Notes: a model not told the origin generated them from the letters alone. A stretch of DNA of 64,000 nucleotides from Candidatus Woesearchaeota archaeon (GCA_018663865.1 JABJPM010000030.1:117-64116); one strand, 5' to 3'. Counted from the first letter of the stretch, positions 6,965-53,990 are shown. Translations and numbers: made by a program.

Positions 6965-7741
6965 ATGGGACAAATAAAGAAATTTCGAAAAAAATATGAA
7001 ACTCCTATGCATCCTTGGCAAAGAGAGAGACTTATTGAAGAAAAAGAATATGTTTTAAATTATGGTTTCAAAAATAAAAAAGAAATTTGGAAAGAAATTG
7101 CAAAATTGAAAAAAGCAAGATTGCAATCAAAGAAAATTATTGCAAATAAAACTTCTGAACAAGCTCTAAAAGAAAAAGATCAATTATTATCAAGGTTGAT
7201 AAAATTTGGAATTTTAATGAAGGATTCAACTATTGAAGATGTATTGGGATTAAAAGCAACAAATTTCTTCGAGAGAAGATTGCAAACTGTAATTGTTAAA
7301 AAAGGTTTAGCAAGATCTGTTAAACAAGCAAGACAATTTATTGTTCATGGACACATATTTATTGGTGATCAAAAAGTTAGTTCACCCTCATATATGGTAT
7401 CCTTGGCTGATGAGTCCAAACTCTCTTTTAATACAAATTCAACTTTATCTAAAGAAGATCATCCTGAGCGAGCAGTATTAACTAAAAAGGATGAAAAAGT
7501 TTTAGAAGAGATAAAAGAGAAGAAAGAATCTGCTAAAAAAGAAAAAAAAGTAGAAGTTAAAGAAGAGAAAAAAGAATCTCCTAAGGAAGAAAAAAAAGTA
7601 GAAGTTAAAGAAGAGAAAAAAGAATCTCCTAAGGAAGAAAAAAAAGTAGAAGTTAAAGAAGAAAAAAAAGAATCTCCTAAGGAAGAAAAAAAAGTAGAAG
7701 TTAAAGAAGAACCTGTCAAAGTGGCAGGGGCAAGTGAATAA
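6965..7741 (+). CDS. rps4: 30S ribosomal protein S4 (uS4) with repetitive Lys/Glu-rich C-terminal extension
   Basis: uS4 N-terminus '[15 protein letters not shown]', S4 domain, then four 48-nt tandem repeats encoding [16 protein letters not shown]. Confidence 0.9.
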
Positions 7742-26283: not shown

Positions 26284-27624
26284 TTACATTCCCGGGATTT
26301 TTCCCTTGAATTTTTTCATCATTTTAGATGGATCGCCCTTCATCATTTTTGACATTTTTTTAGTTTGGCGATATTGTTTTAGCAATTCTCTTACTTCTCC
26401 AGTTTTGGATCCCGAACCTTTTGCTATTCTATCTAATCTTGATCTTGTTAATATCTCTGGATTTTCTAATTCTTCTTTTGTCATGGATTGCATTATTATT
26501 TTCCATTTTTCTAATTTTCCTTCTTGAACTTTTAATGCATCTTTTGGAAGTTTTATTTGTCCCATTCCTGGAACCATTTCCATTAATTTTGATAATGAGC
26601 CCATTTTATTCATTGCAGCCATTTGTTCATACATGTCTAGGAAATTGAATTCTCCTTTTAGAAATCTTTTTCCCAAATCTTGTGCTTGTTCTTCTGTCAT
26701 AGCTTCTTTGGTTTTTTCTAATAAAGCTTTTAGGTCGCCCATTCCTAATAATCTTCCAACAAAACCTTCTGGATTGAATTCTTCTAAATCGTTATTTGTT
26801 TCTCCAGTTCCTATAAATTTAATTGGTGCATTAGTTGTTGCTGCAGCAGAAAGTGCACCTCCGGCTTTTGCAGTTCCATCCATTTTGGTTGCGATAATTC
26901 CCGTGATGTTACATGATTCGTGGAATTTGTTTGCTTGTGTTTCAGCTGTTTGTCCTAAGTCTGCAGAAATAATTAATAATTTTTCATCTGGATTAATATG
27001 TTTATTTAAAGAAGTTATTTCTTCTACTAAATCTTCTGATAAAGCATCTCTTCCTGCAGTATCTATTAATACTATGTCATATTGTGTAAGTTTATCTTTT
27101 ACTTTGTCGTAAATCTTTTTTGGATCTTTTTCTTTTTCATCTGTGAATGTTTGAGTTGATGTTATTTTACCAATTTGTTCAAGTTGTTTCATTGCAGCAG
27201 GTCTATGAACATCTAATCCTAAAAGTGCTACCTTGTAACCTCTTTTACTATAGTAAGTTGCTAATTTTCCTGTTGTTGTAGTTTTACCGTTTCCGAAAAG
27301 TCCAACAAGCATTATTTTGAATGGTCTTTTTTTTGTTATGTTTATTTTTTTAAGTTCTCCACCTAGGAAGACTGTTAATTCTTCGTAAACTATATTTACT
27401 AAGAAATCTCTAGGATTTACTCCCTTCGGAGGTTCTTTGTTTATTGCTTTTTCTTTAATATTTTTGGATAAATTTAATACTAATTTAACATTAACATCTG
27501 CACTCAATAAAGCTCTTTGAATATCTTTTACTAGTTCGTTGATTAAAGCTTCATTTATTATTGGAGCTCCAGCTATCTTTTTGAGCACATTCTTTAAATT
27601 GTTGCTTAGTTTTTCCATTACCAT
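26284..27624 (-). CDS. srp54: Signal recognition particle protein SRP54
   Basis: 'LVGLFGNGKTTTTGKLA', 'DTAGR', Met-rich M domain. Confidence 0.95.
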   Translation of the reverse strand: MVMEKLSNNLKNVLKKIAGAPIINEALINELVKDIQRALLSADVNVKLVLNLSKNIKEKAINKEPPKGVNPRDFLVNIVYEELTVFLGGELKKINITKKRPFKIMLVGLFGNGKTTTTGKLATYYSKRGYKVALLGLDVHRPAAMKQLEQIGKITSTQTFTDEKEKDPKKIYDKVKDKLTQYDIVLIDTAGRDALSEDLVEEITSLNKHINPDEKLLIISADLGQTAETQANKFHESCNITGIIATKMDGTAKAGGALSAAATTNAPIKFIGTGETNNDLEEFNPEGFVGRLLGMGDLKALLEKTKEAMTEEQAQDLGKRFLKGEFNFLDMYEQMAAMNKMGSLSKLMEMVPGMGQIKLPKDALKVQEGKLEKWKIIMQSMTKEELENPEILTRSRLDRIAKGSGSKTGEVRELLKQYRQTKKMSKMMKGDPSKMMKKFKGKIPGM

Positions 27625-27755
27625 TAGAAATCATTGTTATTTGATTGTTTTTAAAGTTTGTTAGTTTAATTAGATTTAAATAGTTAGTTAGACTGTTATT
27701 ACTTATAAGTTGCTAAATTAGGAAGATTTATAAATACTCCTTATTTCTTATTTTA

Positions 27756-28160: not shown

Positions 28161-28177
28161 AAAATTTCTTTTTGTCA

Positions 28178-28262
28178 ATCTTACATTAATTCAAGTTGTT
28201 TTACAACTGAACACCATTTTCTATGAAAATGATTGTTTGTTAGACAGAGAATTAGATATTTA
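28178..28262. repeat. About 80-nt direct repeat copy 1 with internal hairpin (GTTGTtttACAAC)
   Basis: Near-identical to 28722-28805; the copies flank the membrane-protein ORF at 28260-28646. Confidence 0.8.
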
Positions 28263-28646
28263 TATCTTTAACCAAGGAAGAGTTTTATATTTTTTTGGAT
28301 TTAATTTATTTAGCATACCATAAGATAATAAAATAATAACAATACTCCAAAGCCCTTCGTAAGATAGTATGTAACTTGGGTTATTTAAAGAAATACTCCA
28401 AAGTATTAAAACTATAACATTCATAATAATAAAAAAGAGATAAACCCACTTCATTTTTTTGTATAAAGAATAAATGACAAAAGAACCAAGAACAAGGTCC
28501 AATGCTATAAGAAGTGCTGTTAGATTTCCAGAATTATATCTAACCAATATATTTGAAATTATTCCAATAACTATGAGTGCCAGTAAGATGTAATTAATTA
28601 TGTAATTATTTTTCTTAGTTTCCTTTTCACTCCTCTTTTTTCGCAT
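28260..28646 (-). CDS. Four-TM membrane protein (128 aa)
   Basis: Hydrophobic helices throughout. Confidence 0.45.
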   Translation of the reverse strand: MRKKRSEKETKKNNYIINYILLALIVIGIISNILVRYNSGNLTALLIALDLVLGSFVIYSLYKKMKWVYLFFIIMNVIVLILWSISLNNPSYILSYEGLWSIVIILLSYGMLNKLNPKKYKTLPWLKI

Positions 28647-28721
28647 ATAAATTTATTAAATAATATATTATATAAATTTAACCCATATAAATCATTCTTT
28701 ACGATTGTGTTTTCCAGAAAC

Positions 28722-28805
28722 TGTCAACATTACATTAGTTCAAGTTGTTTTACAACTGAACACCATTTTCTATGAAAATGATTGTTCGTTAGATAAAGAA
28801 TTATT
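28722..28805. repeat. About 80-nt direct repeat copy 2
   Basis: Matches 28178-28262 at about 90% identity. Confidence 0.8.
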
Positions 28806-28904
28806 TATTTAATACATGTTTGTTTCAATTGATTTCTGGCGTCTAATACATAACTATTACTGGAAAGAAATATGTCAATAGAAAGAAAAGAAGAATAATT
28901 TTTT

Positions 28905-28953
28905 TATTTGTTAGTTTAATTAGATTTAAATAGTTAGATTTGGTTTCTTTTTT
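28905..28953 (+). promoter_or_regulatory. Conserved promoter-like element (TTTAAATAG TATA-box-like), shared by three genes
   Basis: 'TTTAATTAGATTTAAATAGTTAG' recurs at 27662, 28910 and 29231, each about 25-95 nt upstream of a start codon. Confidence 0.5.
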
Positions 28954-29214
28954 ATGGGAATTTGCGATCATATTAATGGATGTGCTTATGAGCGTAAATC
29001 TGAGGATTATATATGTCAAAACATTTCTAATGCTTCTAATTGTAATTTATATAGAAAACTTTCTAAGTTGCGTTATAAAGGTCTCAAGTATGGTGTGCGT
29101 CGAAGAAGTCCGGAGCTTTCTAAGCTTATTCATGCAATTGAGATAAAGCAGCCTACTCAAGCAGAAGTTGAAGCATCTGTATTTGCTCTTAAACCTTGGT
29201 ACAGAATCATTTAA
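28954..29214 (+). CDS. Small Cys-containing protein, tandem paralog 1 (MGICD...)
   Basis: Shares N-terminus 'MGICD..ER.AY.RK..D..CQNI.N.NLYRKL' and upstream region with 29274-29510. Confidence 0.5.
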   Translation: MGICDHINGCAYERKSEDYICQNISNASNCNLYRKLSKLRYKGLKYGVRRRSPELSKLIHAIEIKQPTQAEVEASVFALKPWYRII

Positions 29215-29273
29215 TTTTTTTAACATTTTTTGAGTTTAATTATATTTAAATAGTTAGATTTTGTTTATTTTTT

Positions 29274-29510
29274 ATGGGAATTTGCGATTATCTTGAGAGA
29301 TATGCTTATAGTCGTAAAAATAGGGATATTATGTGTCAAAATATTCCTAATTATAATTTATATCGAAAATTGAAAGTATATTCTGAGTCAAAATTGGATT
29401 TTCTTGTTTCTAGAAGTAATGTGAGGCCGCTAACTCAAAAGGAAGTTGATGCGGCAAATTATAAAACTAGTTATCGTAAATTTTTTGGAAAATCTAATCG
29501 TCCTCGTTAA
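29274..29510 (+). CDS. Small Cys-containing protein, tandem paralog 2
   Basis: Paralog of 28954-29214. Confidence 0.5.
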   Translation: MGICDYLERYAYSRKNRDIMCQNIPNYNLYRKLKVYSESKLDFLVSRSNVRPLTQKEVDAANYKTSYRKFFGKSNRPR

Positions 29511-29787: not shown

Positions 29788-31602
29788 ATGAAATGGTTTT
29801 TTATCTTGTTGATATTTGTATTAGTTTTATTTTTAGTTAATTTTGTTAGTTCTGATGATTGTGGCATTGATACCTGTGGTGGATTTTCGCAACCAGATAT
29901 TTTTGATCAAACTAGTATGAGTTATAATTATTGCATTCGTGATTCAGATTGTGTTCAGGAATTTAGGATAACCAACTTGGGAAGTCCAGTTAATTTTGAG
30001 AATTGGAGAGTGCTTGGTTCTAGCCATAGAAGTGAATTAGATATTGATTATCCTTGTAATTGGAATCCTACCGGCGGATATACTTTTTCTGCTGTTGATG
30101 GTTGTATGCCTCCTTCTGGAGGTGAATGTGTTTCACCATTCTATTTAAATGTGGATAGTTCATCTGGTGTAATTACCCTTCCTGCAGACACTTATCCTGT
30201 GGGAGTTGTAGGGGTTAGTTATGGCGGTGCATGTTCGGGCGGTGGATGGGCAGAAGGTTTTAATTGGTATAATTTAAATCCTTTTGCAGATGATTTAGCT
30301 TTTTCTGATCCTGGTTGCGTTGCCGATGAACCTTGTGAAATTTCAATTGCTAGTCAAGATGAAGGAAGAAAGTTTTATGGTGATGTGGCTGTGAGTGGAA
30401 CTGATGATTGTTCAAATTCGCTTTACCTCGATCAAAGTGAGATAACTAAAGAATACTCAGATGGGGCGATTAGGTTTACAATCCCTGCAAATACCTTTTG
30501 TTCTGGCGATATTGAATTGAAAATTTATGATTTAATAGATCATATTAATATTGAAGATCAAAGTGGTGGATGGGTTAGTTTTGTTATGGATGAAGGAGAA
30601 GGGGTTATTGATCCAATTGTTATTGAAGTTTCACCCAATCAATGTTATATTGATCAGAGTTGCGATATTACGATTACTGTTGTTGAAGGAACTATTGATG
30701 TTGATGTTCATTCAATTGAATTTTTCAAAGGTGATGATAGTTTTTGGGAATTAATTGCACTTGATAGTGGGGATGTCATAATTAATGGAAATGTAATTTC
30801 TTATACTCTGCCGCCGAATCTGGTTAATGTAGGGGAGATGAATGTTATATATTCTATATTAAGTACACTTGATATTTTAGATTTGAAAACTATAACGATG
30901 ATTGAATCTCAATCGTCTACATGTATTCCTGATGGCTGTAATGATATTTGTCCGAGTTATTGTACTGCTTCAGATGATCCTGATTGTGGTGCCACTGGTT
31001 GTTGTGGTGATTTTTCTATTGGATTGGGAGAGGTTTGCGAACTTGGTCATGATGGTTCTGCCGGAACCTCTGATGATGATTTGGGTGGAGAAAATTGTAC
31101 TAGTATTCCTGGTGGATTTGATGGTGGAACTCTAGGTTGTTTAGACGATTGTACGTTTGATATTGGTGGATGTTATAATAATGATTTTGTTTGTGGAGAT
31201 AATATTATTCAAACTCCAAATGATGATGGTTTAAATGAAACTTGCGATGGAAGTGCAAATTTTTCTGAAACGTGTATTACTGAAGGATTTGATGATGGAA
31301 CTTTAAGTTGTTTAACTGATTGTACTGGTTTTGATCCAAGTGATTGTAGTTCTCCTGCCCCTGTTGTCGGGCCGGATGAATACATAGTATATACTTCTTG
31401 TGAAGAAGATGGGGATGGAAATCAGTATGGGGTTTCGAATTGGACTTTGTATGCGGGAAATGGTTCCCAATTAAATAGTAGTAGTGCTTTATGTATTTTA
31501 TATAGTTCTGAAGTTCCGTTTTCTGGAATTATAGGAATTCTATTATTTCTTGTGGTGATATTTGGATTCTATTATAGAGAAAATTACCAACCTAAACTTT
31601 GA
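29788..31602 (+). CDS. Large Cys/Asp-rich secreted surface protein with N-terminal signal peptide and C-terminal TM anchor
   Basis: Signal peptide 'FFILLIFVLVLFLVNFVSS'; DDxG/Cys-rich repeats; C-terminal 'IIGILLFLVVIFGFYY'. Last seven codons lie inside the 66-bp repeat. Confidence 0.6.
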   Translation: MKWFFILLIFVLVLFLVNFVSSDDCGIDTCGGFSQPDIFDQTSMSYNYCIRDSDCVQEFRITNLGSPVNFENWRVLGSSHRSELDIDYPCNWNPTGGYTFSAVDGCMPPSGGECVSPFYLNVDSSSGVITLPADTYPVGVVGVSYGGACSGGGWAEGFNWYNLNPFADDLAFSDPGCVADEPCEISIASQDEGRKFYGDVAVSGTDDCSNSLYLDQSEITKEYSDGAIRFTIPANTFCSGDIELKIYDLIDHINIEDQSGGWVSFVMDEGEGVIDPIVIEVSPNQCYIDQSCDITITVVEGTIDVDVHSIEFFKGDDSFWELIALDSGDVIINGNVISYTLPPNLVNVGEMNVIYSILSTLDILDLKTITMIESQSSTCIPDGCNDICPSYCTASDDPDCGATGCCGDFSIGLGEVCELGHDGSAGTSDDDLGGENCTSIPGGFDGGTLGCLDDCTFDIGGCYNNDFVCGDNIIQTPNDDGLNETCDGSANFSETCITEGFDDGTLSCLTDCTGFDPSDCSSPAPVVGPDEYIVYTSCEEDGDGNQYGVSNWTLYAGNGSQLNSSSALCILYSSEVPFSGIIGILLFLVVIFGFYYRENYQPKL

Positions 31603-31647
31603 ATCAATTTATCCAAATTGAATTTTTCTATATCTTTCAATTCTTGT
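31582..31647. repeat. Perfect 66-bp direct repeat, copy 1 (also encodes the C-terminal seven codons of the surface protein)
   Basis: Identical to 32448-32513. Confidence 0.95.
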
Positions 31648-31697
31648 TTGCCAAACACCAGAAAAGGATTTATAAATACGCAATTACTAGTTATATC

Positions 31698-32252
31698 ATG
31701 CGTTTACTACCTGAAAAAAATATTTTGGATAAGTTTTGTATAAAATTCTGCAGATTAATCGAAAGATATACAGAATATATAATTGTTTCTGGATTTGTAG
31801 TAATTTCTTCAGGTAGGGCAAGATCTACTGAAGACATAGATATGATAATCCCTAATCAAACTAAAGAGAAATTCGAAATTATTCATAAAAGTCTCGAAAA
31901 TGACGGATTTGTTTGTTTACAATCAAATAATTATGAAGAGATATATGATTATTTAATTAATGATACTAGTGTTAGATATACTCTAAAAAATAAACCTCTT
32001 CCTGAAATGGAATTAAAATTTGCAAAAGATAAATTAGATGATTATCAAATAAAAACAAAAACAAAATTGGAATTGACAGGATTGGATATTTGGTTTAGTT
32101 CTATAGAAATGAATATTGCATTTAAAGAAAATTATCTTAAAAGCAAGAAAGATTTAGAGGATGCGCGACATTTAAGAATTGTTTACGAAGAATTAATAAA
32201 TGAGGAAGAAATAATTAATATTAAAAGAATGATAATGGAGTCAAGGTTATGA
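31698..32252 (+). CDS. Minimal nucleotidyltransferase-fold protein
   Basis: NTase motif 'ISSGRARSTEDIDMII' (hG[GS]...D[IL]D). Confidence 0.5.
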   Translation: MRLLPEKNILDKFCIKFCRLIERYTEYIIVSGFVVISSGRARSTEDIDMIIPNQTKEKFEIIHKSLENDGFVCLQSNNYEEIYDYLINDTSVRYTLKNKPLPEMELKFAKDKLDDYQIKTKTKLELTGLDIWFSSIEMNIAFKENYLKSKKDLEDARHLRIVYEELINEEEIINIKRMIMESRL

Positions 32253-32449
32253 AAGATCAAAGAATCGCATCTGTAGAAACTTGGGCAAAATATGTTCGAT
32301 CAAATAAAAATTGGAAAAATGAACACACGAAATTTATTAATGCCCAATTTAAAAAACATGATAGAATATTAAGTAAATTATCTAAAGAAAAAATAATAAA
32401 ATTATATGGTATTAAAAATGTTAGTGGATACACTAAATTGCTGAAATAA
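32249..32449 (+). CDS. Small basic protein (66 aa), possible partner of the nucleotidyltransferase
   Basis: Translationally coupled overlap ATGA with upstream ORF. Confidence 0.3.
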   Translation: MKDQRIASVETWAKYVRSNKNWKNEHTKFINAQFKKHDRILSKLSKEKIIKLYGIKNVSGYTKLLK

Positions 32450-32513
32450 TTACCAACCTAAACTTTGAATCAATTTATCCAAATTGAATTTTTCTATATC
32501 TTTCAATTCTTGT
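32448..32513. repeat. Perfect 66-bp direct repeat, copy 2 (encodes the C-terminal 21 codons of FtsY on the minus strand)
   Basis: Identical to 31582-31647. Confidence 0.95.
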
Positions 32514-33505
32514 CCAGTACCAAGATAGAGAATTGGTTTATCAGTTACGTGAGAAATTGAGATTGCAGTTCCACCTTTTTCATCAACATCTGCTTTAGAA
32601 AGAATTATGCCATCTATTCCAACGGATTTGTTAAATGTTGTGGCTTGTTCTATGCAATCATTTCCAGTAATTGATTCCCCTACAAATATTTTTAAATCAG
32701 GTTTTGCAATACGAACTATTTTTTTTAGTTCATCTCTCAAATTAATATTTGAATGCATCCTTCCGGCAGTATCTATCAGGACCACATCTACTTTTTTCGC
32801 CTTGGCATGTTGTATCGCATCAAATGCTACTGCCGCAGCATCTGAACCGTAATCATGTTTTATTAGTTTAACATCTAATTTGTCTGCCCAGATCTGTAAT
32901 TGATCTATTGCTGCTGCCCTGAATGTGTCTGAGGCTGATAGGGCAATCTTTAGGTCATTTGATTGTAATAGTTTTGTCAATTTTGCGGTTGTTGTTGTTT
33001 TTCCAGAACCGTTCACCCCTAGAAGTAAAATAACATATGGTTTTTCAGATTCTTTTATTTTATCGACCAAATCAAAATTTGAATCTTTAAATAATTCTTT
33101 TATTGCGTCTTTTAATGAGTCGCCAATTATTTGTTCTATATTATTTTTGTTTAATGGCACATTTACCAAATCCACTTTTAATGATTCTTTTATTTTTTCT
33201 ATTGCCTCTACTGCAACATTGTTTTCTAATAATGCTAATTCTAATTCCCAGAATAAATTTTCGAATTCTTTTTCAGAAATCTTTTTTGTGGTTACTTTTT
33301 CTTTTAATTTGGAAGCTAGAGATTGTTTTGGTTCTTTTTCAATTATTGCCTGTATTTTTTCTTTTGTTTCTTTTTCAATTATTGTGTCAGGTTCAACTTT
33401 CTCTTCTTTGATCATTTCTACAATTTCTTCTTGTGCTTTTTCTTCAACCTCTTGAGAGATATTTTTTACTGCACCCTTTATCTTCTTTTTTAGAAACTTA
33501 AACAT
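32450..33505 (-). CDS. ftsY: SRP receptor FtsY
   Basis: 'LLGVNGSGKTTTTAKL', 'DTAGR', acidic/lysine-rich N-terminal A domain. Confidence 0.93.
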   Translation of the reverse strand: MFKFLKKKIKGAVKNISQEVEEKAQEEIVEMIKEEKVEPDTIIEKETKEKIQAIIEKEPKQSLASKLKEKVTTKKISEKEFENLFWELELALLENNVAVEAIEKIKESLKVDLVNVPLNKNNIEQIIGDSLKDAIKELFKDSNFDLVDKIKESEKPYVILLLGVNGSGKTTTTAKLTKLLQSNDLKIALSASDTFRAAAIDQLQIWADKLDVKLIKHDYGSDAAAVAFDAIQHAKAKKVDVVLIDTAGRMHSNINLRDELKKIVRIAKPDLKIFVGESITGNDCIEQATTFNKSVGIDGIILSKADVDEKGGTAISISHVTDKPILYLGTGQELKDIEKFNLDKLIQSLGW

Positions 33506-33558
33506 GATTTGAATGTAAATAAAGAGTTTTATAAAGGTTTTTGTGTTGTTTTTTTTAT

Positions 33559-33927
33559 ATGAAATATCTAAATGAATTGAAGGATTTGGGTTTACCCGAA
33601 AATGAGTATGCTATTTTTGGTAGTGGTCCATTGGCAATAAGATCATTGAGAGAAAATTTAGATATTGATATTGTCGTTTCCGAAAATCTTTGGAATAATT
33701 TAATTGATAAGTATGGTTTAAGTGGCAGGTGTGTATGTATTGGTAATGTTGATGTTTATCGAGATTGGTTTGGGATGGATATTGATGATTTAATTAAAAA
33801 CTCTGAAATTATTGAGGGTTTTAGATATGTATGTTTAAATGATGTTGTTAAATGGAAAGAAAATACTTCTAGAGATAAAGATAAAAAAGATTTAATTTTA
33901 ATTAGGGATTATCTTAAGAATAATTAA
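33559..33927 (+). CDS. Nucleotidyltransferase-fold small protein
   Basis: 'FGSGPLAIRSLRENLDIDIVV' NTase-like motif. Confidence 0.4.
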   Translation: MKYLNELKDLGLPENEYAIFGSGPLAIRSLRENLDIDIVVSENLWNNLIDKYGLSGRCVCIGNVDVYRDWFGMDIDDLIKNSEIIEGFRYVCLNDVVKWKENTSRDKDKKDLILIRDYLKNN

Positions 33928-34594
33928 TTTTATTTTTGATTTTTTTGATTGCCCTTTTTCTTCCTTTGTCTCTTTCTTCTTTTAATTCTGGTGAATCATA
34001 GATTTCCTCTTTTGTTATTATCATCATATCTAGTCCGCCGGAATATAAATCATGTATTGCAAAATTTAATGCAGTTTCTGCTAAATCTATTCCTTGTTCT
34101 AAAGTTATATTATTTGAATCTAGTGGATCTCTTCTTCCTTTTGCTAGGGATATAATTTGTTCTGAATCTAAATATTCTTCTACATATTGCGAACCGCTAC
34201 CCATGTATATTCCTAATCTTTCTTCTACTCCACCCAATGGCCAACAAGTATAAAGTTTTGGTTCTTCTTCAAAATTTGTTGCTAAAAATAACCCATTATA
34301 GGTATCGTCTGGAATTTGATTGTCCCATCTATTAAGGTTCAATCCCAATAATTCCGGAAATATTCCTGTTTCAACAATTTGTTCGATGTCGTACTTATCC
34401 TCTTTTAATTCTTCTAAGAAGTTTTCAAATTCTTGGTCATAGATTCCTGCAATTCCAAAGACTGCATTTCTACTTTTGTTAATATGTAATTTTCTAATAA
34501 TACTTTTTTGATCTCCGGCAGTCCCTTGCAAATCGGATGCCATTATTATTCCTTTTTTCCCTTTTTCCGCTTTTAATCCTAATACTGTAGTCAT
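33914..34594 (-). CDS. Proteasome beta-type / HslV-like N-terminal-nucleophile peptidase
   Basis: Thr directly after Met ('MTTVLGL'), 'GIIMASD' and 'GSGSQY' family motifs. Confidence 0.6.
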   Translation of the reverse strand: MTTVLGLKAEKGKKGIIMASDLQGTAGDQKSIIRKLHINKSRNAVFGIAGIYDQEFENFLEELKEDKYDIEQIVETGIFPELLGLNLNRWDNQIPDDTYNGLFLATNFEEEPKLYTCWPLGGVEERLGIYMGSGSQYVEEYLDSEQIISLAKGRRDPLDSNNITLEQGIDLAETALNFAIHDLYSGGLDMMIITKEEIYDSPELKEERDKGRKRAIKKIKNKINYS

Positions 34595-39441: not shown

Positions 39442-39978
39442 ATGGAAAAGATTAAACGAAATATGAAAAGAGGAATTTCACCTTTAATATCGTACATTTT
39501 AATTATTACTTTGTCAGTTAGTATTGGTTTTTTAGTTATAAATGCGTTAACTTCTGAAGTTGATAAATTTGAGATTGATCCGATGGTGGGATATTGCGAT
39601 GATGTAAGTATTTCTGTTGAGGGGGTCTGCCTTAATGGAAGTATGATTAAAGTAAATGTTACGAGTACAGGGTCTTTTTCTGTCCATAAGTTTTCTTTTG
39701 GGAGAGTGACCAATGTTTCTGCCTTGCAATGGTGTGATGTGAATTTGTCTGCATCCCCCTTAGATTTTGGGATTGAGACTATATATGGGATTAGTCGTGG
39801 TGCTGATTTTAATGTTGCTGTGAATGAGTCTACAAAAGCATGTGATTATTTGTATCCCACCTCTACTGCAGGAATTGCAGAAATTAGAGTAATGCCTTGG
39901 ATAAAACCTGAGGGAGAATTAATAAGTTGTAAAAATAAAGAAGTAATAATTAAGGAGGGAATAAATGGGAATTGTTAA
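39442..39978 (+). CDS. Archaeal type IV pilin
   Basis: 'MKRGISPLISYILIITLSVSIGFLV' class III signal. Confidence 0.65.
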   Translation: MEKIKRNMKRGISPLISYILIITLSVSIGFLVINALTSEVDKFEIDPMVGYCDDVSISVEGVCLNGSMIKVNVTSTGSFSVHKFSFGRVTNVSALQWCDVNLSASPLDFGIETIYGISRGADFNVAVNESTKACDYLYPTSTAGIAEIRVMPWIKPEGELISCKNKEVIIKEGINGNC

Positions 39979-40453
39979 TAAAAAAGGAGTTTCACCATTA
40001 GTAGCAAGTATATTGTTAGTTGCAATTGTTATTGTTATCGCATTTCTTGTATTTTGGTGGTATGGGGATTATGTTGCTGAGAATTTAGATAAATCTGGAA
40101 TAACTGCAGATCAAGCATGCATGCAAGATGTAGGATTTAGTATAACTAATGTTAATTGTTTACAAAATTCATTAGATACTAATAAATTAGTGTATTTTGA
40201 TTTAGAAAATACTGGTGACATTGGACTGAGTGCTTTCAAAGTAAGTATTGATGGCAATTTGGCTGATGATGTAAAATCAATATCTCAAGAAGTTAGGGAG
40301 GGTGTAACTAGCAAATTAAGTTTCGAGTATGATTTTGATGTTGTTGGAAATACTTTAACTACTGATATTGTTCCATTGATTTGGGCTGGTGGAGGTACAA
40401 AGTATTGCAAAGATAAAACTCAGACAATAAATGTGGTTTGTTTGTCTGCATAA
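39965..40453 (+). CDS. Archaeal type IV pilin
   Basis: 'NKKGVSPLVASILLVAIVIVIAFLV'. Confidence 0.7.
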   Translation: MGIVNKKGVSPLVASILLVAIVIVIAFLVFWWYGDYVAENLDKSGITADQACMQDVGFSITNVNCLQNSLDTNKLVYFDLENTGDIGLSAFKVSIDGNLADDVKSISQEVREGVTSKLSFEYDFDVVGNTLTTDIVPLIWAGGGTKYCKDKTQTINVVCLSA

Positions 40454-40492
40454 AGGTTAACTTTATATATTTCTTTTTTTATTTTTCTTTTT

Positions 40493-40903
40493 ATGTTTAA
40501 AAAAGGGGTTTCATCACTAATTGCTACTATTTTATTAATTGGAATTACTATTGGATTATCTTTATTGGTTGTCAATTGGGCCAAAGACAGTGTTGAAGAT
40601 CAAACCGATAATCCTGTTTTTGATATTGAAACTAGGGAAATTTGCAGGAGTGCTTTGACGGACTTTGAATTTGTTTTTGAGAGTGTGCGTGTCAATATTC
40701 AAAACAAAGGTCCAAATGATTTTAGTTCTGTTGCAATTCTTTGGACGGCCGAGAATGGTTCAATTGGATATAATTCTTTAACTTCGAGTATTTCTGGATT
40801 TGGATTCGGAAATGCTAGTTCTGATAGTGGAGTGTATTCTGGAGTGAAAGTAATTCCTTATGTTTCTGGATTGGAATGTGATGGATTCTATGTTGAAATT
40901 TAA
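40493..40903 (+). CDS. Archaeal type IV pilin
   Basis: 'MFKKGVSSLIATILLIGITIGLSLLV'. Confidence 0.7.
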   Translation: MFKKGVSSLIATILLIGITIGLSLLVVNWAKDSVEDQTDNPVFDIETREICRSALTDFEFVFESVRVNIQNKGPNDFSSVAILWTAENGSIGYNSLTSSISGFGFGNASSDSGVYSGVKVIPYVSGLECDGFYVEI

Positions 40904-40979
40904 ACCACAATATTTAAATAGATATAATTTTATTTTAGATATAATTATATTTAATTATAATTAAAAAGGAGGTAAGAAA

Positions 40980-41414
40980 ATGAATAATAAAAAAGGAGTT
41001 TCTCCATTAATCGCTACTGTGATGATTGTTGGAATTGTTATTGCTCTATCTTTTTTAGTTACTACTTGGATAACTGGTAGTGTTGAAGATACGATTGATG
41101 ATACTGATTGTGAAATGGAAGCTCAAGAGAGATGTAGTGAATTAACTAGTGCTGTGAAGTTATCTGTTAATGGTGCGGGTAATAAACTTATTGTTTCTAA
41201 TGAGGGTGCAACTGATATAAAGGGATTGAATGTAGTTCATTATGATAAGGATGGAAATTCTAATTCGGGGTCTGAATTTGATCTGAGTGCATATAAATCA
41301 AATATTAATACTAGTATAGGGAGTAGCGATATTGCTTTCAAAGTGTTTATGGTTGGAACTGATGCAGATGAATTATGTAGTGTGGAATGTTCTCCAGTAT
41401 TATTAGAACTATAA
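40980..41414 (+). CDS. Archaeal type IV pilin (recent paralog pair, copy 1)
   Basis: 'MNNKKGVSPLIATVMIVGIVIALSFLVTTWITGSVED'. N-terminal 40 aa and about 75 bp upstream are nearly identical to copy 2. Confidence 0.75.
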   Translation: MNNKKGVSPLIATVMIVGIVIALSFLVTTWITGSVEDTIDDTDCEMEAQERCSELTSAVKLSVNGAGNKLIVSNEGATDIKGLNVVHYDKDGNSNSGSEFDLSAYKSNINTSIGSSDIAFKVFMVGTDADELCSVECSPVLLEL

Positions 41415-41528
41415 TTTTTTCTTTTTTTCTTTAATTTTTTTCTTTTAATATTACCACAATATTCAAATAGATATAATCTTATTTTTTACATATTCATATT
41501 TAATTATAATTAAAAAGGAGGTGAAAAA

Positions 41529-41957
41529 ATGAATAATAAAAAAGGAGTTTCGGCATTAATTGCTACAGTGTTAATTGTTGGAATTGTTATTGCTCTATCT
41601 TTTTTAGTTACTACTTGGATAACTGGTACTGTTGAAAATGATATTGGTAATATTGATTGCGAAATTGAGGCTCAAAATCTTTGTTTAGAATTGACTGACG
41701 ATCTTAAACTTAGTTCTGGTACAAGCGCAGTGATTTTTACTAATGAGGGTCCAACTGATATAAAAAATATCACAATTGTACAATTTGCACTCAATGGGTC
41801 TACAATATCCAGTAATGATCCTTCCGGGATAAATAGTTATTCGAGTCATGCTCAATCAACTGACGCGGGCGCTTTCCAAATGAAGGCATTCATAACGGTG
41901 TTTGGTGAAGATGGGCTGTGTGAAGTTGGTTGTAATCCTGTTACAATCGAAATATAA
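41529..41957 (+). CDS. Archaeal type IV pilin (recent paralog pair, copy 2)
   Basis: 'MNNKKGVSALIATVLIVGIVIALSFLVTTWITGTVEND'. Confidence 0.75.
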   Translation: MNNKKGVSALIATVLIVGIVIALSFLVTTWITGTVENDIGNIDCEIEAQNLCLELTDDLKLSSGTSAVIFTNEGPTDIKNITIVQFALNGSTISSNDPSGINSYSSHAQSTDAGAFQMKAFITVFGEDGLCEVGCNPVTIEI

Positions 41958-42021
41958 TTTTTTCTTTTTTTCTTTAATTTTTTTAGAAAGATATTTAAAT
42001 GAAATTTTTCATTTTTAGTGT

Positions 42022-49975: not shown

Positions 49976-50055
49976 TATGGGAACATATATATATATGTAA
50001 AATTATTATTTCTTTTATAATATTAAAGGAGAGTGATAATAAATGAAAAAAAATA

Positions 50056-50742
50056 ATGTTTGGAATTTTATTTTTGGCTGTGATTATGATTTCTAGTTGT
50101 AGTCCTGAAATGAGTCCTGAAAGTAAAAGTTTGCAATTAAATGTGCCTAGTGGCGGTGGCGCGACTCGCATATGCGAGGATAATGATGGTGGAAGAAATT
50201 ATTATCTCCAAGGAGATGTTTATTATCACTCTGCCCCTGAGAAGAGATTTACAGATACTTGTGTAAGTGATAATGGTGATGGGACCCCTGTTGAGTCTTC
50301 AAGGTTATTGAAGGAATATTATTGCGATGATTTTTCTGAAATTATGCATATTAATTATGGTTGTGTTAATGGATGTTTAGATGGAGTTTGTTTAGATGAA
50401 CCAAGTTATATGGATCCTACTCAATGTGTTTTTCAAATTGCCACGGAAGGATATGGGGATCAGGATGTTGTAGTGGGTTGTGATCAAGATCAATTTGTTG
50501 GAAAAATTACCCACATTTTATGCCCAGTTTCAGATGATAATCATTATTTGATTTCTACAGGATGGATGACTAATACATTGCCTTTTGAAATGGGCTATAC
50601 TTGTGTAGATTCAAATACTGGTGAATGGAAAAAACCTACTAGAATATCGGCATATTGTTGTAATATACTTGATTATGATTTAGCTGGAAAAGAAATTCAT
50701 AAAACTAGTATAGATAAATCGGGGAATTTAATTTCCTCTTAA
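50056..50742 (+). CDS. Cys-rich lipoprotein with conserved leader (family copy 1)
   Basis: 'MFGILFLAVIMISSCSPEMS' lipobox. 5' region is about 95% identical to 53547-53645 and 63941-64000. The upstream ATG is out of frame because of an A8 versus A7 tract. Confidence 0.6.
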   Translation: MFGILFLAVIMISSCSPEMSPESKSLQLNVPSGGGATRICEDNDGGRNYYLQGDVYYHSAPEKRFTDTCVSDNGDGTPVESSRLLKEYYCDDFSEIMHINYGCVNGCLDGVCLDEPSYMDPTQCVFQIATEGYGDQDVVVGCDQDQFVGKITHILCPVSDDNHYLISTGWMTNTLPFEMGYTCVDSNTGEWKKPTRISAYCCNILDYDLAGKEIHKTSIDKSGNLISS

Positions 50743-53567: not shown

Positions 53568-53990
53568 ATGAAAAAAATAATGTTCGGAATTTCATTTTTA
53601 GTTGTGATTATGATTTCTAGTTGTAGTCCTGAAATGAGTCAAAGATATGATCTCGGAATTACGTCCAATGAATGCATTGATTTGGATGGAGATGGATTTG
53701 GAGATGAATGCCCATTGGGAATCGATTGTAATGATGAAGATGATTCTAGGTGGTTTTGGAGACCTTTCTATCTTGATGAAGATCAGGATTCTTATGGTGC
53801 TGAAGAATTAGTTACATTTGAATGTTGGGGAAATTTTGAAAATTCGCAATATCCGTTGGATGAGATGGCTTTTAATAAATTAGATTGTGAGGATTTAAAT
53901 AGGAATATTAATCCTGGTGCAAAGGAAATTTGTGGCAATGGGGTTGATGAAAATTGTGACGGATTCGACCTTAGATGTTTGAAGAAATAA
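53568..53990 (+). CDS. Cys-rich lipoprotein with conserved leader (family copy 2)
   Basis: 'MKKIMFGISFLVVIMISSCSPEMSQ'. Confidence 0.6.
   Translation: MKKIMFGISFLVVIMISSCSPEMSQRYDLGITSNECIDLDGDGFGDECPLGIDCNDEDDSRWFWRPFYLDEDQDSYGAEELVTFECWGNFENSQYPLDEMAFNKLDCEDLNRNINPGAKEICGNGVDENCDGFDLRCLKK

Follow-up and report, generated by a model that had tools for sequence, protein, structure and literature searches.

We analysed a 64,000-nucleotide stretch of DNA from a marine Candidatus Woesearchaeota archaeon (GCA_018663865.1, JABJPM010000030.1:117-64116; hereafter the window), in which a small two-gene operon lies beside ftsY, the gene for the signal recognition particle (SRP) receptor, and is bracketed by two identical copies of a 66-nt sequence. 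The copy that adjoins ftsY is the native 3' end of that gene, and the other copy is derived from it. Comparison with related genomes indicates that the operon, a putative toxin gene (open reading frame A, ORF-A) followed by a putative antitoxin gene (ORF-B), predates the split between the window lineage and its closest relative, and that the identity of the two repeat copies is younger than both the arrival of this cassette and the split. As to mechanism, we tentatively favour an insertion before the split that would have duplicated the ftsY tail, followed by homogenisation of the two copies and, later, by a fusion on the left flank; we hold this sequence of events to be possible rather than probable.

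Firstly, we established that the repeat is real and has sharp edges. The direct repeat reported in the original prediction was confirmed: the two copies of AATTACCAACCTAAACTTTGAATCAATTTATCCAAATTGAATTTTTCTATATCTTTCAATTCTTGT, a 66-mer that begins AATTACC and finishes TTCTTGT, are perfect and lie 866 bp apart (Table 1). A search allowing up to 3 mismatches returned only these 2 copies in the 64-kb window, where 0 were expected from 100 shuffles. To the left, the similarity can be extended by 5 nt more with 2 mismatches (71 nt, 97% identity); beyond these 71 nt the flanks of the two copies resemble each other no better than shuffled sequences do (P about 0.54 on each side), hence the edges are sharp. 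A repeat longer than 66 nt, suggested by a tblastn match to 37 FtsY-like codons at copy 1, was ruled out, the extension not rising above shuffles. Both 66-mers, at the 866-bp spacing, were found in 11 contigs from 11 different assemblies (several from ENA, two JGI metagenomes and NCBI GCA_018669415.1, produced with MEGAHIT k141 and SPAdes), all 99.94-100% identical to the window. In addition, the exact FtsY protein is recorded in 41 blocks of public assemblies, and every contig that we read has the same gene order; the population is nearly clonal. Since k-mers of 141 nt span the 66-nt repeat, an assembly artefact is excluded for practical purposes. A mis-join, collapse or expansion induced by the repeat, against which the original prediction had advised a check, has nothing in its favour beyond the general risk of metagenome assembly and would have to have produced the same structure in 11 assemblies of different samples by different assemblers, several of them at k=141; its probability is negligible. 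Contig L095 (ERZ4200961), considered as a divergent strain in which co-evolution of the copies might be followed, was dropped, as 42 of its 42 differences fall within ftsY (32747-32954): a 208-nt stretch of the G domain is about 20% divergent and the remainder 0%, which suggests either an assembly chimera or an inter-species recombination tract within ftsY. The repeat holds no significant hairpin (z -1.5), the 28-34 kb region matches no Rfam family, no inverted repeats were found at the ends of the 800-bp unit between the copies, and no tRNA is associated with that unit. We also noted a 23-nt inverted match (78%) between the repeat (31606-31628 and 32472-32494) and the 5' coding part of ORF-A (31713-31735), which encodes the similar peptides EKFNLDKL and EKNILDKF on opposite strands and may be due to chance.

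Secondly, we examined the anatomy of the locus. The first 2 nt of copy 2 are the final two bases of the ORF-B stop codon, and the remaining 64 nt are the last 64 nt of ftsY. The repeat had been described as a duplicate of the ftsY 3' end, and copy 2 indeed holds the stop codon and tail of an intact ftsY; the 21 terminal codons then assigned to it are, more exactly, the stop codon preceded by 20 complete codons (QELKDIEKFNLDKLIQSLGW) and a single base of a G codon. The SRP54 GTPase domain of Pfam reaches residue 349 of the 351 residues of FtsY, and the same tail is present in all relatives. The region between the copies (31648-32447, 800 bp) is a minimal transcription unit composed of a box resembling the transcription factor B recognition element and TATA box (BRE/TATA), ORF-A and ORF-B. 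The box, AGAAAAGGATTTATAAATA, lies 19-38 nt before the ORF-A start codon; at homologous loci an AAAG/TTTATA(T/A)A box lies 22-32 nt before the ATG, and nothing is conserved further upstream. Judged by standard archaeal promoter geometry the box would act as a promoter, and its position implies a leaderless mRNA. The two ORFs overlap by ATGA (32249-32252), as expected of the translationally coupled pair that had been proposed, and the stop codon of ORF-B abuts that of ftsY (TAA directly followed by TTA on the plus strand). An ORF scan and Pfam revealed no transposase in the unit, in agreement with the original prediction, and no integrase or recombinase there or in the neighbouring ORFs examined, the rest of the window not having been screened for integrases.

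Table 1. Features of the ftsY locus (positions counted from the first letter of the window).
Feature	Position	Strand	Remarks
Surface-protein gene, 604 aa, C-terminal transmembrane anchor	29788..31602	+	native tail ENYLNE-stop, now ENYQPKL-stop
Fusion junction GAAAATTA	31579..31586	+	surface-gene homology of relatives stops at 31586; microhomology AATTA (31582-31586)
Repeat copy 1	31582..31647	n/a	derived from the ftsY 3' end; 50 nt separate it from the ORF-A ATG
Operon upstream spacer, 50 nt	31648..31697	+	holds the BRE/TATA-like AGAAAAGGATTTATAAATA at 31660-31678
ORF-A, 184 aa, putative toxin	31698..32252	+	MenT1-like nucleotidyltransferase (predicted)
ORF-B, 66 aa, putative antitoxin	32249..32449	+	basic, all-helical (predicted) partner
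Repeat copy 2	32448..32513	n/a	native 3' end of ftsY, holding the stop, the final 20 codons and one further base
ftsY, SRP receptor, 351 aa, intact	32450..33505	-	Pfam SRP54 5.9e-70

Thirdly, we assessed the age of the cassette and of the repeat by comparison with related genomes. The closest relative in the databases, hereafter the sister species, is represented by contigs from two independent assemblies (L098 and L099) and has an FtsY that is 91% identical. It shares synteny with the window on the 5' side of ftsY (a 263-aa gene, a thermosome gene and a CBS protein gene), where gene order is conserved among FtsY orthologues at 91%, 80% and 78% identity. On the 3' side of its ftsY, the sister carries an ORF-B homologue (80% identity at the amino acid level) preceded by only the last 41 codons of ORF-A (83%), and DNA homology with the window is unbroken from inside ORF-A through ORF-B into ftsY, at about 83-87% identity. 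In the outgroups (FtsY 78-84%; L100-L103), a different gene, a convergent DUF5667 gene, lies next to ftsY, which has a single tail and no module. Because the sister has its ORF-B/ftsY junction at the same nucleotide, the module had joined ftsY before the species split, and the very recent insertion of the cassette that had been put forward is not borne out. In L098 (7041-7381), a 1-nt difference extends ORF-B by six residues into ftsY antisense, to the end LLNNHQPKL, in the frame and with the stop that the window surface protein uses in copy 1. No second copy of the ftsY tail was found in the sister contig, in which the region where it would lie is deleted.

The identity of the two copies, on the other hand, is evolutionarily young, as originally proposed. 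The window and the sister differ at 6 of the 66 repeat positions. At positions 24 and 57, C is found in the window lineage only and T in the sister and in four outgroups, and both copies of the window carry C. Free divergence of the copies since the split predicts 6-8.6 differences between them, and the probability of observing none is 2e-4 to 2.5e-3. Since both copies share the two post-split substitutions of the window lineage, C24 and C57, the event in which copy 1 arose from copy 2, or was last made identical with it, is more recent than the split.

The left edge of the repeat carries the trace of a separate event. Homologues of the 604-aa surface protein end in FGFYFKENYLNE or KESYLNK (pattern FYFKE(N/S)YLN(K/E), then the stop), and the gene immediately after theirs encodes a further surface protein and in no case FtsY. 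Blastn alignments with the surface-protein genes of relatives (L104-L106), together with a direct comparison of the 3' ends, place the limit of homology at window position 31586 in every case, inside AATTA, 5 bases into the repeat; AATTA contains the ftsY stop codon, and after 31586 the window is ftsY-tail sequence. The surface-protein gene was thus fused to the ftsY-tail copy at the 5-nt microhomology AATTA, copy 1 giving it its last codons, its stop and a T5 run. The tail ENYQPKL had been attributed as a whole to the repeat: NYQPKL and the stop do lie in it, the E codon lies outside, and only QPKL, the stop and the T-run derive from ftsY antisense. Neither the sister nor the outgroups have anything beside ftsY that corresponds to any part of this left flank (surface protein, DUF5652 and others), which was therefore rearranged in the window lineage. 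The surface-protein gene was not natively convergent on ftsY, contrary to the idea of an insertion at the convergent 3' ends of these two genes.

We then sought the nature of the pair. ORF-A matches nothing in Pfam, NCBIfam or PADLOC, and a sequence-profile search of the PDB gave nothing meaningful and no MenT. The proposed membership of the NTP_transf_2 and MNT/HEPN families found no support in hidden Markov model (HMM) searches run on both ORFs (NTP_transf_2/Polbeta for ORF-A, HEPN for ORF-B), and ORF-B has no family match in the HMM libraries. ORF-A nevertheless belongs to a large family: its homologues number more than 1100, are uniform in length (about 185 aa) and show 60-72% identity, members are present in 468 GTDB species genomes, and the source-named homologues are all from Woesearchaeota, Nanoarchaeota or 'archaeon'. 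An AlphaFold model built on an alignment of 41 homologues is confident (pLDDT 91.5), and in a Foldseek search with this model five MenT1 chains rank first (E 2.8e-7, TM 0.63-0.65); the predicted fold is a Pol-beta-type nucleotidyltransferase of the MenT type. In the motif T44-E45-D46-I47-D48, the 41 sequences show no exception at T44 and D48 and at least 90% conservation at D46. K143, D152 and D155 are invariant as well and, judged from the alignment, may correspond to the C-terminal Lys and Asp of MenT1, their order and spacing from the DxD being similar. The active site of MenT1 comprises T39 (the auto-phosphorylation site), D41, K137 and D152; the phospho-acceptor Ser or Thr of the MenT motif, which is S78 in MenT3, precedes the first Asp by two residues (PMC11375011). 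On the strength of the model, ORF-A is a MenT1-like nucleotidyltransferase and not a DUF1814 member at the sequence level. A PD-(D/E)xK nuclease or a small serine recombinase, to which D48...E105xK107, RxST and a weak PvuRts1I match had pointed, is excluded by the confident nucleotidyltransferase fold.

ORF-B is predicted, with a low-confidence model, to be all-helical, and a partner of about 45-94 aa directly follows ORF-A in about 70 loci, mostly with a 4-nt overlap. MenA1, the antitoxin of MenT1, is a 68-aa helical protein whose gene lies upstream of that of the toxin (PMC10435456). The nucleotidyltransferase with a small coupled partner that had been recognised at this locus is therefore upheld, its enzyme fold being nearest to the MenT1 toxin of a toxin-antitoxin (TA) pair. 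By analogy, we infer that the A-B pair works like a MenAT1-type module: ORF-A would most likely poison translation by adding nucleotides to tRNA 3' ends, ORF-B would be a small helical neutraliser of ORF-A, and the pair would be addictive. A selfish or TA module fits the data because neighbourhoods differ almost everywhere and because the sister species keeps the partner beside a truncated enzyme; decay of the toxin with the partner left whole is the pattern expected of a toxin-antitoxin pair.

The contexts of the family as a whole are highly variable: 73 A-B loci fall into 37 neighbourhood groups, and seven locus pairs with more than 80% ORF-A identity have no flanking gene in common. We compared the 200 nt upstream of ORF-A with the 300 nt downstream of ORF-B at 70 distinct loci, the null being a cross-locus comparison with a maximum score of 30 in 420 comparisons. 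The window and five other loci (6/70) score above this maximum: the window 132, L036 50, L030 45, L073 39, L049 36 and L065 35. Their geometry is consistent: between the end of the left copy and the ATG there are 32-56 nt in each of the six, and the right copy begins at -1 to +12 nt relative to the ORF-B stop in five, the exception being L073 (+247 nt). The right copy overlaps the 3' end of a convergent right-hand gene in the window, L049, L065 and L073. The repeat sequence is different at each locus, with lengths of 17-66 nt. In L030 (2877-4789), the last 27 coding nucleotides of ribB (DHBP synthase) are present three times and bound two successive two-gene cassettes, the first an NTP_transf_2/Polbeta nucleotidyltransferase with a 118-aa partner on the minus strand and the second ORF-A/ORF-B; the 3' terminus of a housekeeping gene here hosts an array of cassettes, and no recombinase is visible. 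L049 and L065 have a common, older and decayed repeat, and their mutual homology begins at its left edge. L036 carries a 57-nt repeat at 77% identity, the upstream copy of which sits inside a replaced spacer; its relative L088 lacks the repeat, though the cassette and both flanks are syntenic.

In two loci of about 8.5 kb each, L060 and L077, 13-15-nt repeats were considered as target duplications and rejected, since their motif, TAACTCTCACTTT, recurs 7-8 times per 8.5 kb where 0.55 is expected and is a dispersed junction motif. This 13-nt motif lies nearly always on one strand and at gene boundaries. An 830-bp A-B block between two copies of it stands on opposite sides of a 207/208-aa gene in the related genomes L060 and L077, which suggests gene-order shuffling at the dispersed motif. 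Recombination between flanking repeats can also be followed in the window itself. About 3 kb to the left of the cassette, two 90-nt direct repeats, 91% identical (28173-28262 and 28722-28811), bracket a 128-aa membrane-protein gene (28260-28646, minus strand) with about 75 nt upstream of it. In the conspecific contig L004, precisely one unit of 549 bp (a repeat copy together with 28263-28721) is missing, and the sole repeat copy left is a chimera, the left part matching copy 1 and the right part copy 2. Hence, recombination between flanking repeats occurs in this population.

How did the present arrangement arise? In the account that we tentatively favour, the A-B module would have entered beside ftsY before the split of the window and sister lineages, and the insertion would have duplicated the ftsY tail, which keeps an essential gene whole. 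In the window lineage the copies would have been made identical again, by gene conversion, by unequal crossing-over or by excision and homologous re-integration of the 866-bp unit, and the left flank would have been rearranged later, the surface-protein gene becoming fused to the left edge of copy 1 at the 5-nt microhomology. Host recombination and repair would act throughout, with no transposase or integrase encoded by the element, and addiction to the module would disfavour its loss. The duplication at insertion, the homogenisation and the role of addiction are steps that we infer. Several observations weigh against this account and the TA assignment on which it draws. The sister has lost the region of copy 1, which leaves an ancestral copy 1 conjectural. 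The bracketing repeats of L036 and of L049/L065 have decayed to about 77-80%, and the homogenisation of the 66-nt repeat is assumed. Under this account, chance would bring the fusion as close as 5 nt to the left edge of copy 1 in roughly 5-10% of cases. Across loci, no conserved cassette termini were found beyond the BRE/TATA box. The conspecific empty site (surface-protein gene and ftsY tail to tail with one copy), for which the original prediction had asked, and the circle or tandem junction (ORF-B, repeat, operon) gave 0 matches each in pattern scans of JGI contigs, the contigs of this organism being mostly in ENA, and neither was seen in the contigs that we read; the empty junction (surface gene, repeat, ftsY) would read TATAGAGAAAATTACC...CTTGTCCAGTACC and the circle or tandem junction GCTGAAATAATTACC...CTTGTTTGCCAAAC. 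The DUF1814/AbiEii HMM has no match at E<=1 in 41 family members, and the toxin comes first in the gene order, unlike in menA1-menT1. Lastly, 60-70% identity over 468 species genomes is unusually high for a TA system and could mean a housekeeping function. ORF-A might then be a nucleotidyltransferase with a housekeeping or small-molecule role (an ANT(2'')/LnuA-like or tRNA-end enzyme) and ORF-B its regulatory subunit, the repeat being an incidental scar of a rearrangement. The more than 1100 proteins of uniform length, the lack of a match to toxin models of PADLOC and Pfam, and the failure to find family members on viral contigs would suit such a pair. We nevertheless think it rather unlikely, given that the invariant Thr of the TxDxD motif corresponds to the auto-phosphorylation site of MenT (PMC11375011), that the family is patchy among close relatives, the sister having kept the partner of a truncated enzyme, and that gene neighbourhoods are so variable.

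Two other histories each explain parts of the data better than the tail-duplicating insertion does. The module may have stood beside ftsY without any repeat until a single later event in the window lineage, mediated by microhomology, added the surface-protein block together with the second tail, by template switching, break-induced replication or a templated insertion at an end-joining junction. A broken 3' end of the surface-protein gene would have annealed at AATTA, at the ORF-B/ftsY boundary, copied about 60 nt of ftsY tail and jumped to a point upstream of the operon promoter; a tandem duplication of the 866-bp unit followed by fusion or deletion would have the same outcome. With three events, this history is the most economical. 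Some rearrangement has to be assumed whichever history is right, the left flank being non-syntenic with both the sister and the outgroups; native surface-protein sequence contains the 5-nt microhomology of the junction; the copies are perfect, sharp-edged and younger than the split; and L036 and L088, syntenic with an upstream copy in L036 only, offer a similar case. What makes it unlikely in our view is that a switch near the ORF-B stop and a return about 50 nt before the ATG would have to reproduce the geometry of unrelated lineages, for which the chance is about 1-2% unless the mechanism is tied to the cassette ends, and that the three-copy, two-cassette array of L030 is left unexplained. 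Alternatively, and nearest to the interpretation of the original prediction, an empty allele with the surface-protein gene fused to the ftsY tail may have come first, into which an 866-bp circular or linear unit carrying 66 nt of ftsY tail would have integrated homologously, a Campbell-type or homology-facilitated recombination yielding two identical copies. The sharp edges, the perfect identity, the same ftsY junction and the left boundary at the fusion point would then follow with no further coincidence. The presence/absence polymorphism with a chimeric copy 3 kb away in the same population shows repeat-mediated exchange of a comparable kind, and the 830-bp A-B block of L060/L077 has been relocated between dispersed copies of a 13-nt motif. 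We consider this re-integration improbable, however: neither the empty allele nor a circle junction was found, it takes the most steps, the deletion giving the empty allele must still end exactly at the ORF-B stop, the unit holds no recombinase and no family member was found on viral contigs. All models require a fusion within a few bases of the boundary between the ORF-B and ftsY stops, and this boundary may either be a fragile convergent junction or a place where selection keeps those outcomes in which all four genes are intact.

The unit was also compared with two kinds of known mobile element. A DNA transposon or insertion sequence was rejected on the grounds that there is no transposase, that terminal inverted repeats and conserved termini are lacking and that repeat length varies from 17 to 66 nt, and a site-specific integrative element because no recombinase was found in the unit or the neighbouring ORFs examined and the repeat sequence differs at each locus. 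It is conceivable, though we think it doubtful, that small cassettes made of a promoter and a TA operon (the MenT-like pair, or the MNT type as in L030) form a distinct class of recombinase-less mobile units in DPANN archaea, which would enter at the 3' ends of genes or where genes converge, duplicate a long target stretch of variable length, and then be excised, re-inserted, stacked into arrays and swapped by way of their repeats.

Other parts of the window show lineage-specific genes and repeats. Between ftsY and the conserved 263-aa gene lies an insert specific to the window lineage (33541-33927 on the plus strand and 33914-34594 on the minus strand), which holds a minimal nucleotidyltransferase-like ORF (FGSG...DIDIVV, no Pfam match) and a proteasome-subunit-like gene; no direct repeat was found to flank it. 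In the outgroups the 263-aa gene overlaps the start of ftsY, and the sister has three different genes there. Both sides of ftsY are thus insertion hot spots. The SRP54 gene (26284-27624, minus strand) and ftsY (32450-33505, minus strand) lie about 5 kb apart, with variable small, surface-protein and repeat-flanked genes between them. Among these, two tandem paralogous small genes (28907-29351; 86 and 78 aa) have Cys-rich N-termini and a common 125-nt repeat, and a 49-nt sequence present three times before neighbouring genes (27639-27687, 28889-28937 and 29209-29257) looks like a reused promoter or leader. Elsewhere, about four paralogous small genes with hydrophobic, pilin-like N-termini (KKGVSPL...) and repeated 3' ends recur with a period of about 490-550 nt (39976-41984). 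Two genes that lie 3.5 kb apart and otherwise differ share a 70-nt repeat, 94% identical (50047-50116 and 53571-53640), over the ribosome-binding region and the signal-peptide-like N-termini (MFGI.FL..IMISSCSPEMS). Finally, about 5 copies of a 48-nt in-frame tandem repeat (7487-7726) make up a K/E-rich segment of the ORF at 6965-7741.

The A-B pair belongs to an unannotated family of gene pairs that is large in Woesearchaeota, Pacearchaeota and their relatives, with more than 1100 proteins and 468 species genomes. Judging from the structural model, this family is probably the form that MenT-type tRNA-modifying toxin systems take in DPANN, and it offers a handle on growth control or defence in organisms that cannot yet be cultured alone. 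The locus would extend long-target-duplication insertion, so far described for restriction-modification (R-M) units in bacteria, to a TA-like operon and to archaea. It also provides a dated example, with a cassette older than the split, a repeat identity that is younger and a preserved microhomology junction, which can constrain the mechanism. In extremely compact genomes with overlapping gene ends, such duplications may be the only way to add genes while leaving the neighbours unharmed, and annotators should be prepared for gene tails that turn out to be antisense copies of an adjacent gene. If the class of recombinase-less cassettes were real, it would have an archaeal life cycle analogous to that proposed for R-M units and would build variable islands in compact genomes.

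Several known systems resemble parts of this locus. MenAT1 of M. tuberculosis (MenT1 Rv0078A, MenA1 Rv0078B; PMC10435456, PMC11375011) is likewise a two-gene operon, with an enzyme of about 195 aa (184 aa here) and a partner of 68 aa (66 aa here), and shares the Thr-x-Asp-x-Asp motif, and its C-terminal Lys and Asp may have counterparts in the conserved ones of ORF-A. However, the enzymes are only about 18% identical, ORF-A has no DUF1814/AbiEii match, the partners are unrelated in sequence and the enzyme gene comes first here. MNT-HEPN pairs also join a small nucleotidyltransferase to an adjacent small partner, and a pair of this kind neighbours A-B in L030, but ORF-A has no NTP_transf_2/Polbeta match, ORF-B is not HEPN and the predicted fold is nearer to MenT than to MNT. 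The att-flanked islands at tRNA and protein genes have in common with our locus repeats that are the 3' end of a host gene, which stays intact, and tandem arrays (as in L030), whereas here no integrase lies in or next to the unit, the repeat differs per locus (17-66 nt) and the unit is only 800 bp long.

By analogy, the closest precedent is the long-target-duplication insertion of R-M units described by Furuta, Abe and Kobayashi in 2010 (PMC2853133). These units lack mobility genes and are flanked by variable, target-derived direct repeats of more than 30 bp. The repeats often include a start or stop codon, whereby the target gene is preserved, and the units can amplify through them; no archaeal case figures in that survey. 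Units were there defined by a size below 20 kb, the absence of mobility genes and flanking direct repeats of more than 30 bp; here, an 800-bp unit with ORF-A and ORF-B as its sole genes is flanked by perfect 66-bp repeats, which span the stop and the last 20 codons of an intact ftsY. Our locus differs in its cargo (a nucleotidyltransferase and its partner), in its DPANN host, in a cassette that is older than the present identity of its repeats, in one repeat edge that is a microhomology fusion with an unrelated gene and in having no empty-site genome. The likeness lies in a small unit of the post-segregational-killer type with neither transposase nor integrase, in repeats of more than 30 bp that are copies of a target left intact, and in the amplification or loss of repeat-flanked units by recombination between their repeats. 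The locus thus combines two known kinds, a MenT-like TA pair and a long-target-duplication selfish unit, in a form that is new for archaea and for an unannotated DPANN family.

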